Below are positions 16,223 to 21,564 of a stretch of 24,523 nucleotides of DNA, one piece after another. The position numbers and the translations under genes are program-made. The DNA is from a virus. Its lineage: Duplodnaviria > Caudoviricetes. The notes beneath the pieces are model-generated. The model ran no database searches. It was not told the origin of the DNA and worked only from the letters and a program-made list of their open reading frames with translations. The DNA is taken from IMG/VR virus record IMGVR_UViG_3300048574_000541, positions 1 to 24,523 of that record. One strand, given 5' to 3'. Each line of letters begins with the position of its first letter. Positions within the stretch are counted from its first letter, which is position 1.

Positions 16223-16732
16223 ATGAGAAAAATCAGATACTTGGATGTATCGCGGCTTCGCGAGTTGTTTTCTTATGATCCCATCACGGGAATATTGACT
16301 CGGCGCACAACACATCGCGCCGGGCAACCGTGCGGCACGGTTTTCAGCACGGGTCATATGCAAGTAAGCGTTGATGGAAAAATGACTGGCGTCCATCGGA
16401 TCGCATGGGCACTTCATTCCGGAAAATATCCAGCAGTTGAAGTTGATCACGTCAACGGTAACGGCTCCGACAACCGCATTTGTAATCTTCGTATCGCGAC
16501 TTCCGCTCAGAACAATCAAAATCGGCGTCTTAGCTCTCGAAATAAATCGGGAGTTAAGGGCGTTTTTCGCATCAAAAATTGGGCTGGTAAAAAAGTTTGG
16601 CGAGTAGATATCGGCCATAACCAAGGCGAGCACTACATCACGCATTTTGATTGTTTTGGCCAAGCAGTCAGCCACGCGCACGAGATGCGGAAAATACTTC
16701 ATGGCGACTTCGCCAGCACAGGGGTCGCATAA
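16223..16732 (+). CDS. HNH homing endonuclease (HNH_3 plus AP2-like C-terminus)
   Basis: 'FSYDPITG', 'HRIAW', 'VDHVNGNGSDNRICNLRIATSAQNNQN', 'NKSGVKGV' motifs; visibly more AT-rich than its neighbours. Confidence 0.92.
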   Translation: MRKIRYLDVSRLRELFSYDPITGILTRRTTHRAGQPCGTVFSTGHMQVSVDGKMTGVHRIAWALHSGKYPAVEVDHVNGNGSDNRICNLRIATSAQNNQNRRLSSRNKSGVKGVFRIKNWAGKKVWRVDIGHNQGEHYITHFDCFGQAVSHAHEMRKILHGDFASTGVA

Positions 16733-19247: not shown

Positions 19248-19805
19248 ATGTCCCCCGCAGCCCTTCCGGCGGCGCGCTCGGCGCTGCCCGCTCGTTATGC
19301 CTGGCTCAACAAAGAGCCGGGGCCGAAGATGCTCAAGGAAGCGCTCGCGCTTTACGGCACGGTTGAGGCGCCGGGCGCGAAGGACAATCCCGTCATCCTC
19401 GCGTGGGCGCGCGAGACGGGACTCAGCAGGGATTACAACCACGACTCCATCCCGTGGTGCGGCCTGTTCATGGCCGTGGTGGCGCAGCGCGCGGGCAAGC
19501 CGGTGGTCAAGAGCCCGCTGTGGGCGCTGTCGTGGGCGGATTTCGGCAAGCCCGCGCCCAAGCCGATGCTGGGCGATGTACTGACCTTCAAGCGCAGCGG
19601 CGGCGGCCATGTCGCGCTCTATGTCGGCGAGGACGCAACCGCCTATCACGTCCTCGGCGGCAATCAATCTGACAGCGTGTGCATCACGCGCATCGCCAAG
19701 GCGCGGCTCTATCGCGCGCGCCGGCCGGCCTACAACGTCAAGCCCGACAACGTCCGCAAGGTGATGCTGGCCTCGAGCGGCAAGCTCTCGACCAACGAAG
19801 CGTAA
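19248..19805 (+). CDS. Endolysin, TIGR02594/NlpC-P60-like peptidoglycan peptidase
   Basis: 'DNPVILAWA', 'DSIPWCGLF' (catalytic Cys), 'GGGHV' (His), 'VLGGNQSD.V'; GGAG RBS. Confidence 0.9.
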   Translation: MSPAALPAARSALPARYAWLNKEPGPKMLKEALALYGTVEAPGAKDNPVILAWARETGLSRDYNHDSIPWCGLFMAVVAQRAGKPVVKSPLWALSWADFGKPAPKPMLGDVLTFKRSGGGHVALYVGEDATAYHVLGGNQSDSVCITRIAKARLYRARRPAYNVKPDNVRKVMLASSGKLSTNEA

Positions 19806-19851
19806 ACCGCGCCGGGCGGTCACCCGGCAAACCCAAAACAGGAGAGTCAAA

Positions 19852-20079
19852 ATGACTTCTGTGCAAAGCACGTCCGACGAAAGGACCGTGAACAATACGA
19901 TGCGTCATGCCTATCGCGTCCTGACCGACGCCGAGAAAGCAACCATGTCGGCAATCAAGGACAAGGGATTGGAGTTTCACGAATTGATCTCTGGAATTGG
20001 GAACAGTCGTGAAGTCTCGATTGCCAAGATCAAGATCGAAGAAGCCGTTATGTGGGCTGTCAAGCACATCACGGCTTAA
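19852..20079 (+). CDS. Acb2/Tad1-like helical-hairpin protein (putative cyclic-nucleotide sponge, anti-CBASS/Thoeris)
   Basis: 'YRVLTDAEKATMSAIKDKG' resembles the Acb2 N-terminal YRxLS..E...M...K..G motif; 'SREVSIAKIKIEEAVMWA' resembles the Acb2/Tad1 hairpin; AGGAG RBS. Confidence 0.75.
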   Translation: MTSVQSTSDERTVNNTMRHAYRVLTDAEKATMSAIKDKGLEFHELISGIGNSREVSIAKIKIEEAVMWAVKHITA

Positions 20080-20109
20080 GCAACATTCCTCACATCATCG
20101 GAGAATTAC

Positions 20110-20286
20110 ATGACCTGGGATTCCATCCAGCAGGTGCTGCGCATCGTGCTGAACGCGGCCGGCGGCGTGCTGATCGGCAAGGGCTACCTCACCGAGGAAA
20201 TGAGCACCACGCTGATCGGCGGCCTGCTGTCGCTCGGTTCGGTTGGCTGGTGGTTCGCATGGGACCGCAAGCGAACGGCCGCCTAA
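20110..20286 (+). CDS. Putative holin (58 aa, two hydrophobic segments)
   Basis: MTWDSIQQVLRIVLNAAGGVLIGKGYLTEEMSTTLIGGLLSLGSVGWWFAWDRKRTAA; basic C-terminus; GGAG RBS; not in ORF track (<60 aa). Confidence 0.7.
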   Translation: MTWDSIQQVLRIVLNAAGGVLIGKGYLTEEMSTTLIGGLLSLGSVGWWFAWDRKRTAA

Positions 20287-20526
20287 ATGACGGCATCGGC
20301 CATCATCGGCGTTGTCTCGGCGCTGCTGTCCATCATTCGGCTGATCGCGGATTACGCGGTCAGCCGGAAGTGGATGGACGCCGGGACGGCGCAAGCCATC
20401 GCGAAAGGACTCACAGATGCGAACGATGCCATCGCGCGGGCTACTGCGGCCCGTGACCTTGTGCGGGCTGATCTTGCTCGCGATCCATCTGGCGTCCTGT
20501 CAGACGACGGGTTCCGGCGCGATTGA
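20287..20526 (+). CDS. Putative i-spanin (Rz-like)
   Basis: N-terminal hydrophobic anchor, Ala-rich helical region, C-terminal 'DDGFRRD'; overlaps a lipoprotein gene. Confidence 0.7.
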   Translation: MTASAIIGVVSALLSIIRLIADYAVSRKWMDAGTAQAIAKGLTDANDAIARATAARDLVRADLARDPSGVLSDDGFRRD

Positions 20527-20659
20527 CCCGGCGCTGGTGGCCTGCGCCTCGTTCAAGCCGGTGTACTGGTCGAAGGCCGACACGCCGGCGACCGTTGCGC
20601 AGGTGAAGGAAAACAACGCTGCTGGGAAGGCGCTGTGCGGGTGGGGCGCGGCGAAATGA
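20417..20659 (+). CDS. Putative o-spanin (Rz1-like lipoprotein)
   Basis: Signal peptide with lipobox LASC, two further Cys ('ACASFKPVYWSKADT...LCGW'); starts in the +1 frame inside the i-spanin; AAGGA RBS. Confidence 0.75.
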   Translation: MRTMPSRGLLRPVTLCGLILLAIHLASCQTTGSGAIDPALVACASFKPVYWSKADTPATVAQVKENNAAGKALCGWGAAK

Positions 20660-20991: not shown

Positions 20992-21564
20992 ATGATCCGC
21001 GCCATCGCGGCGGGGCTCGGCTTGGCCGTGGCCGCGCTGTTCACGCTTTTGCTTGTGTCCGGCCTGGTATCCGTTCCCGGATGGTCGGCCGGGCTGCATC
21101 CGGACTGCAATGTCACCATGCCATGCGATGCGCCGGCCGCAGCCGGCAGCGCGAGGGACAGGGTCCGCATTGCCCGTGCGGCGCGATTCAGTCGCGCGGA
21201 TTTCGGCGGCCCGATGTATCCGCCGGAGACGCAGAAGTCGTTCCTGCGCCACGGGACGGCGATCCTGCCCCATCCTGCGGGCTGTCCGCGCCGCGCGTTC
21301 TGTGGGTGCGGCGCGGCCGTCGAGGTGTTCGGCCGTCCCGTCCGCTCTCTCTGGCTGGCGGCCAACTGGCTGCGCTTCCCGCGCGCCGCGCCAGCTCCCG
21401 GCATGGTGGCTGCACGACGCGGCCATGTGTTCGTGATCAGGCAGGTTCTCGGGGAAGGGAAGGTGCTGGCCTACGATGCAAACTCGGGCGGGCGCAAGAC
21501 GCGCCTGCATGTCCGATCGCTTGCTGGCTTTGTGGTGGTGAATCCCCATGGCGGAGAGGGCTGA
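20992..21564 (+). CDS. Exported CHAP/NlpC-P60-like putative cell-wall amidase/peptidase
   Basis: N-terminal signal/TM segment; 'GCPRRAFCGCGA', 'LWLAANW', 'PGMVAARRGHVF', 'DANSGG' give a Cys-His-Asn arrangement; GAGGT RBS before ATG 20992. Confidence 0.65.
   Translation: MIRAIAAGLGLAVAALFTLLLVSGLVSVPGWSAGLHPDCNVTMPCDAPAAAGSARDRVRIARAARFSRADFGGPMYPPETQKSFLRHGTAILPHPAGCPRRAFCGCGAAVEVFGRPVRSLWLAANWLRFPRAAPAPGMVAARRGHVFVIRQVLGEGKVLAYDANSGGRKTRLHVRSLAGFVVVNPHGGEG

Follow-up and report, generated by a model that had tools for sequence, protein, structure and literature searches.

The closest described systems to the locus studied here are the cyclic-nucleotide sponges Acb2 and Tad1. Acb2 of phage PaMx33 (p26; PDB 8H2J, 8IXZ) and Vs.4 of phage T4 (7UQ2) are two-helix hairpins with a Y-R-x-L motif. 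In PaMx33 Acb2, Y11 and K26 are required for cGAMP/dinucleotide binding and R67 and T74 for cA3 binding, and the T74A substitution lowers the cA3 affinity to about 291 nM (PMC10312549). The trinucleotide pair is not universal: T4 and CHI14 Acb2 each lack one of the two residues and show no cA3 binding, CHI14 Acb2 having R67 alone (PMC10312549). Compact forms are also on record: Table S2 of Hadary et al. (2025, PMC12393519) has 44 rows of Acb2 homologs, and 27 of these do not exceed 80 aa. Tad1 (CbTad1/CmTad1; PDB 7UAV, 8KBB) is longer, at ~125 aa, and builds its gcADPR pocket from an N-terminal region and a C-terminal extension. Its hexamer-interface residues are K96, Q98, E99, M102, W103 and K106 (PMC10680739).

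The window, by which we mean the whole stretch of DNA analyzed, is a provirus record of 24,523 nucleotides from a member of the Caudoviricetes (IMG/VR record IMGVR_UViG_3300048574_000541, ~61% complete), and it contains a single PF24729 match. This match lies within a lysis cassette that has the following features:

19248..19805, plus strand: endolysin candidate of the TIGR02594 family, CHAP/NlpC-P60-like (E 2.9e-28), with its role assigned from family and position
19811..19828, plus strand: 6-bp GC hairpin without a U-tract, just left of the insertion point and present in the empty-site relative too
19830..20086, no strand: 257-bp insert made up of the RBS, the ORF, and 7 nt; L406, a sister cassette, and the empty-site contigs of five runs lack it
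19840..19844, plus strand: ribosome-binding site AGGAG, read from the sequence, 7 nt 5' of the ATG and part of the insert
19852..20079, plus strand: putative Acb2-family sponge ORF of 75 aa (PF24729 match), with a predicted dinucleotide pocket (Y21/L24/K36) and a predicted trinucleotide pocket (R53/I60)
20110..20286, plus strand: holin of the Pam3 gp28 family (PF23987, E 2e-13), preceded by an RBS of its own that is not part of the insert
20287..20526, plus strand: membrane protein, from its position likely the inner-membrane spanin (weak match to phrog_21554, E 0.0066)
20417..20659, plus strand: Rz-like spanin ORF overlapping the preceding gene (phrog_1275, E 1.5e-8)

The sponge ORF is located 46 bp 3' of the endolysin candidate and 30 bp 5' of the holin, with the spanin-like ORFs beyond, and the family matches bear out this arrangement as it was given in the preliminary description. 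The AGGAG RBS, the Y21-R-x-L-T motif, K36, and the hairpin motif reported there were also located, and the translated ORF contains Y21-R22-V23-L24-T25, K36, R53, I60, and a C-terminal S-R-E...KIEEAVMWA. A promoter/terminator scan returned 1 and 1 sites, which is no more than the shuffle expectation. The RNA runs consist of contigs only and have no bearing on expression; metatranscriptome X19 leaves most of the ORF uncovered. Elsewhere in the window, a second CHAP-like and probably exported protein is encoded after the spanins (20992-21564, plus strand), CHAP being assigned by Atlas to 52% of one cluster (0.92), and the same gene occurs in L406. An HNH endonuclease (PF13392) is inserted amid the tail genes (16223-16732, plus strand).

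To assign the 75-aa product to a family, we combined profile, conservation, and structural evidence. The PF24729 match in the Pfam scan has an E-value of 3e-18 and a score of 66.2 bits against a cut-off of 27. A protein search returned 3338 relatives (clusters) out of 3338 candidates, and the relatives with names are mostly prophages of Alphaproteobacteria. Among the best 120 of these 3338 relatives, which are 77-91% identical to the window protein, Y21 is conserved in 118/120 and K36 in 120/120, and R11, N15, M17, R18, and H19 of an N-terminal extension are invariant (120/120). In the AlphaFold model (mean pLDDT 83.9), a short N-terminal helix accompanies a helical hairpin whose two long antiparallel helices span residues 26-47 and 53-74. 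The structural match to Acb2 that the preliminary description anticipated is seen with Foldseek, where the top seven rows are all Acb2/Vs.4 chains (prob 0.98-1.00, TM 0.59-0.64, E 0.14-0.33), with zero matches for the model at E<=0.001. With VIA, Vs.4 (7uq2) ranked fourth (Z 6.5, rmsd 2.6, 60 aligned) among unrelated helical hairpins that score equally or higher (Z 6.9). At the sequence level, a single-sequence search of the PDB did not find Acb2 at E<=1, and a profile of 121 close sequences reached Acb2_43, Vs.4, Tad1, and PaMx33 Acb2 at E 0.017-0.14 only. A 26-row profile gave 1e-14, a value partly inflated by the deliberate inclusion of PaMx33-like rows, and made the register readable from the alignment. 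Based on the 66-bit PF24729 match, the Acb2/Vs.4 rows in Foldseek, and the conservation of Y21 and K36, the 75-aa product is, as judged from its sequence, a member of the known Acb2 family.

The residue register given in the preliminary description (Y11/K26 and R67/T74) holds in both the profile alignment and a structural alignment to 8h2j, which pairs residues 16-75 of the model with chain positions 6-89. The equivalences with PaMx33 Acb2 are Y21=Y11, L24=L14, K36=K26, R53=R67, and I60=T74. The conservation of Y21 and K36 therefore bears on the ligand, since their counterparts are the residues that PaMx33 Acb2 needs for cGAMP binding. The trinucleotide pocket is only half retained, with R53 present and Ile60 in place of Thr, which bears on ligand range rather than on family membership. 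Beyond this substitution, the window protein differs from PaMx33 Acb2 and Vs.4 in being ~24 central residues shorter, in ending at residue 75 without a counterpart of the P90 contact, and in carrying the conserved N-terminal extension. The preliminary description of a compact sponge without the central segment is thus right as to the missing residues, but the idea that this compact form is new was rejected because 27/44 published, tested homologs are of 80 aa or less. The compact Acb2_13, Acb2_18, and Acb2_43 (PDB 9PTQ), of 68-80 aa, have the same short hairpin (PMC12393519), although Acb2_43 has T4-H5-L6-V7 in its N-terminal pocket where the window protein has Y21-R22 (PMC12393519). Acb2_13 is the most similar tested homolog seen, at 23/59 identical residues by hand count (PMC12393519). 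We read its row in Table S2 as inhibiting cUA- and cGAMP-CBASS as well as type I Thoeris; the same column reading yields 10 anti-Thoeris rows, in agreement with the text of that paper (PMC12393519). A string search of Table S1 of the same source with ten clade motif strings turned up no clade member, one string having matched two unrelated rows (PMC12393519). The clade of the window protein thus appears, from these motif strings, to be unsampled in the largest published Acb2 survey. In the text of that survey, a term search found neither genomic context nor fusions (PMC12393519).

The likeness to Tad1 is more restricted. The C-terminal helix motif and the hexamer/trinucleotide residues are in register with Tad1, as the preliminary description had it for the hairpin, but the match is limited to the last ~25 residues (profile positions 48-74) and the N-terminus is of the Acb2 type rather than the Tad1 type. 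The regions that form the gcADPR pocket of Tad1 are absent. Identity as a Tad1 is ruled out by the length of 75 aa and by the confinement of the match to those positions. In the alignment, K61, E63, E64, M67, W68, and K71 correspond to the six Tad1 hexamer-interface residues, and this conservation leads us to expect a homohexamer.

Position 60 sets the window copy apart from its relatives. Thr is found there in 119/120 of the closest homologs, and across 178 loci there are 171 Thr and 4 Ile, with Ile encoded by two different codons. Contigs that cover position 20030 carry a Thr codon in runs X1, X9, X2, X5, and X10, save one depth-2 contig of X5, which is identical to the window across 130 letters and is perhaps itself source data. 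An assembly error is unlikely. Because Thr is present in nearly all homologs, loci, and covering contigs, Ile60 is a rare allele, and by analogy with PaMx33 Acb2 it would weaken the trinucleotide (cA3) site only. The preliminary description had placed Ile at the T74 position correctly, but the residue is not a clade feature, and the proposal that Ile60 defines a shifted subfamily was rejected on the same counts (119/120 and 4/178). The natural Thr/Ile pair offers a test of ligand range against cA3-based type II Panoptes.

Whether the sponge gene belongs to the lysis machinery can be judged from related cassettes. L406 lacks exactly positions 19830-20086, while its endolysin (92%), holin (86%), and spanin-like ORFs (92-94%) are closely similar in identity to those of the window, and its record (76% complete) contains no PF24729 match. 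In contigs of runs X9, X2, X5, X10, and X11, position 19829 is joined to the holin leader or the holin start; the short sides of these empty-site contigs are 24-28 letters, and we take them as related phages rather than the window strain. The filled form is present on other contigs of X9 and X2. Among 37 loci (30 dereplicated) of the window's endolysin family, none has Acb2 within 1.5 kb. The sponge ORF has a GC content of 50%, against 65-67% in its two neighbors. The sponge gene is an optional insert and not core lysis machinery, because it is absent from L406, from 37/37 loci of the endolysin family, and from the empty-site contigs of five runs. A holin, an antiholin, or a lysis regulator at the core of lysis would be expected in cassettes with the same endolysin and holin, and the sponge gene is missing from these. 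For this reason, the cyclic-nucleotide control of lysis timing that the preliminary description had raised is unsupported at the window locus, and only the holin-like fusions described below keep the idea alive.

To determine whether the post-endolysin position recurs, we assembled 80 viral and 56 genome loci, which gave 119 after dereplication. For the neighbor scan, 300 of 337 representatives were compared with PHROGs, leaving out 37 second-rank neighbors, and two shadow ORFs were replaced by the overlapping larger ORF. An endolysin, TerL, portal, or capsid gene is present in the flank of 71/119 loci. Endolysins from this first set served as BLAST seeds, and a locus was scored as adjacent if an endolysin ended <=600 bp upstream on the same strand, with the 113 loci that have >=700 bp of flank as the denominator. 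By this criterion, endolysin adjacency was found in 21/113 loci, as compared to 9 for portal, 9 for capsid, and 2 for TerL. Since the seeds came from the first set, the count was repeated on a held-out set of metagenome loci; of the 80 fetched, 59 were new, and 38 had enough flank. Here an endolysin is upstream in 8/38 loci by the seeds and in 11/38 once a Pfam scan added three, with 0 for both portal and capsid by the seeds. With the same seeds, another Acb2 clade gave 1/61 and a GapR-like small phage gene 0/76. The comparison of 11/38 with 1/61 has a Fisher p of 8e-5, and by Pfam alone a lysin is the upstream ORF in 9/34 versus 1/51 (p 9e-4; 4 and 10 loci without a scannable ORF), kinship being ignored in both values. 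PaMx33-type Acb2, as a second control, gave 1/6 adjacent loci (7 loci, 6 dereplicated), a number too small for a control and one that does not support strict clade specificity. The upstream endolysins belong to ten families (phrog_7, 315, 181, 894, 1794, 822, 17001, 465, PF11860, and TIGR02594), and the order endolysin-Acb2-holin/membrane protein is repeated across loci, one annotated record among them. The survey of synteny with lysis genes that the preliminary description had called for thus reveals an association that is repeated, and the preference of the clade for the post-endolysin slot is real. We found no earlier report of such a preference for Acb2 in the literature searched, which was mostly without subscription journals.

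Several observations from the survey concern other positions and sources. About four fifths of the loci are not after an endolysin, often lying in head, portal, or neck modules and in some cases in replication/recombination regions. A second recurrent slot lies in the gap that separates the major capsid gene from the neck genes in Mu-like prophages, and in that from head-tail adaptor to stopper (L101, L107, L113, L120, L121, L123, L129, L130, L133, L136; L138). In the last of these, Sinorhizobium phage Aussie, gp37 is a clade member among the neck genes. L140 (NC_023841), which is deposited under an algal host as Dunaliella viridis virus SI2, has a cassette of a bacteriophage-type GH19-like lysin, Acb2, and a holin. 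Among 401 genomes of the class around G001, 8 have a match, too few for context statistics.

Two explanations of the preference differ from mere placement for late expression. The first is that the post-endolysin gap is a tolerant spot, in which one or a few old insertions were spread by module shuffling and the Ile60 copy is perhaps partly decayed. Consistent with this, adjacency is partly inherited on the gene tree, with 27 changes where shuffles gave 31 (range 26-35); support for this tree is poor (14/136 branches starred). The sponge gene is less GC-rich than the upstream DNA in 30/31 adjacent loci, for which amino-acid composition is a possible cause, and Ile60 departs from a nearly invariant Thr. 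However, the GapR-like control and the other Acb2 clade are nearly devoid of adjacency, and adjacency is found at every identity level (3/11, 8/41, 8/48, and 12/38). Moreover, the window copy retains its own RBS and 20/20 residues that are invariant among close homologs, and Ile recurs at four loci with two different codons. We therefore regard a neutral position as improbable. The second explanation holds that the same sponge is selected for the slot beside the holin and endolysin itself, where it would block premature holin triggering by membrane-disrupting CBASS effectors or delay exposure to Panoptes. Holins trigger on membrane depolarization. In the Panoptes variant, sponge synthesis would be delayed so that guards that detect the sponge fire once progeny and endolysin are ready. 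CapV, Cap15, and OptE act by disrupting the membrane, and Panoptes is set off by Acb2 (PMC13712596, PMC13577387), which together with the held-out excess over the other clade and the ten endolysin families speaks for selection of the slot. Against it, 92/113 loci of the first set are not lysin-adjacent, empty-site cassettes are common, and the counts are non-independent, as 52% of adjacent copies have an adjacent nearest neighbor, versus 22% in shuffles. On balance, we consider selection of the slot itself unlikely.

Fusions were found among the 104 longer homologs. In 11 of these, the Acb2 C-terminus leads without a break into a hydrophobic segment that resembles a signal peptide, as judged by eye; a representative search added two, for a total of 13. 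The remainder is one holin-like membrane family in 8/13, and the other five are fused to porin-like, lipoprotein-like, or other exported proteins. Together with links to other sponge families, these are:

L007:4001-4729, L014:4001-4693, and L200:772-1503: in-frame fusions of Acb2, a signal-like segment, and a holin-like domain, 230-267 aa (proteins P0123, P0124, P0127, P0129, P0130, P0132, P0135, P0226)
P0122, P0131, P0133, P0221, and P0247: porin-like, lipoprotein-like, and other exported proteins joined to Acb2 through this same junction, with L005:4327-5118 as a locus where the porin-like gene is unfused
L110:2660-3028, L115:1041-1388, and L122:96-311: RyR-domain genes (PF02026) adjoining or fused to members of the clade, and a PF21825-Acb2 fusion (P0176, P0223, P0160)

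The last group has precedents in sponge-sponge fusion genes (Acb4-Tad2 and PF21825 fusions; PMC12265669) and in RyR-like domains, which are a sponge family (PMC13251945). The N-terminal RyR and PF21825 fusions tie the clade to other sponge families in small multi-sponge clusters. PF21825 goes by the name Sequestin. Two further N-terminal domains recur and are candidates for additional anti-defense domains: one in 10 members (P0139, P0159, P0163, P0169, P0172-P0174, P0195, P0209, and P0210), with no family match in the one scanned, and a second group with phrog_11049/872, of unknown function (P0177, P0192, P0200, P0211, P0215, P0222, and L022:3593-4219). For Acb2 joined by a signal-peptide-like junction to an exported protein, holin-like or other, no such precedent was found among sponge fusions, and no earlier report of an Acb2 fusion to a holin-like membrane protein was found in a literature search mostly without subscription journals. 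On inspection by eye, two fused genes, in L007 and L014, have hairpins like that at 19811-19828 ahead of their Acb2 RBS.

The holin-like fusions could mean that the sponge, or the fusion itself, is a direct regulator that couples cyclic-nucleotide binding to holin activity and shifts the lysis time upon host alarm. In favor of this, the eight in-frame fusions have an intact Acb2 domain, a signal-peptide-like segment, and a holin-like domain. One is from a named isolate, Methylovirgula ligni, and two of the loci are directly downstream of endolysins. Identity is 72-91% among the Acb2 parts but 20-44% among the domains fused to them, apart from one pair at 78%. The unfused relatives of the holin-like domain have their own leader, with an endolysin in the flank of 4/9 stand-alone loci, and the closest relatives of the C-domain of P0123 (70-76%) are unfused. 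In a tree test for repeated origin of the fusions, a single origin was not rejected (3 changes; p-AU 0.557; long branches). That the fused domain is a holin is a lead only, from PF09682 (LL-H-type holin) on 20% of the fused-domain cluster at 0.88 (Atlas); the domain gave no Pfam match in two fusions and no NCBIfam match in three proteins, and it matches phrog_17576, a family with no assigned function. Arguing further against a direct regulator, the window gene is unfused and optional, the membrane proteins downstream vary among loci, and five fusions share the junction with unrelated exported proteins; in L005, the porin-like gene is unfused and directly 3' of Acb2. In addition, PaMx33 Acb2 does not change conformation upon trinucleotide binding (PMC10312549). 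Met67 of the fusions lies behind a purine-rich GAGGA/GAAGAG run and could act as an internal start of the downstream gene, so the fusions may be compact overlap rather than functional coupling. We rate direct regulation as very unlikely. In a bolder version, the clade was recruited to lysis cassettes, and in at least eight phages fused to a holin-like protein, because it links the cyclic-nucleotide alarm of the host to lysis. It would then form a phage-encoded holin module gated by nucleotides, a counterpart of the bacterial CBASS effectors that combine a sensor with a membrane part, and could hold or advance lysis once immunity fires; we consider this equally unlikely.

Taken together, the evidence leads us to favor, with good confidence, an Acb2-family gene on an optional insert of 257 bp, whose product is predicted to act as a hexamer that captures the cyclic dinucleotides of CBASS and which is likely placed for late expression rather than for a need in lysis. 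The product would form a hexameric sponge that binds 3'3'-cGAMP/cUA through Y21/K36 and might bind 3'cADPR, by analogy with Acb2_13; cA3 binding would be weakened by Ile60. The gene would be cotranscribed with the lysis genes, so that the late operon supplies an abundant, stoichiometric sponge when CBASS fires. A role against Thoeris in addition to CBASS is possibly present. The late-gene position supports the late coexpression put forward in the preliminary description, but this is not new, since T4 acb2 is reported to be expressed middle/late (PMC13478754). Late expression alone incompletely predicts the excess of endolysin over portal and capsid upstream, or the eight holin-like fusions.

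The window protein itself is an ordinary Acb2, and what is useful is its genomic setting: the clade, which is large (3338 clusters) and well conserved, is found repeatedly in the gap after unrelated endolysins, with filled and empty alleles and holin-like fusions. Sinorhizobium phage Aussie (gp37) and its host form a cultured pair, and the Methylovirgula ligni isolate provides a fusion. With this pattern it becomes possible to test whether when and where the sponge is made is adjusted to late activation of CBASS, to holins that trigger too early, or to detection by Panoptes.
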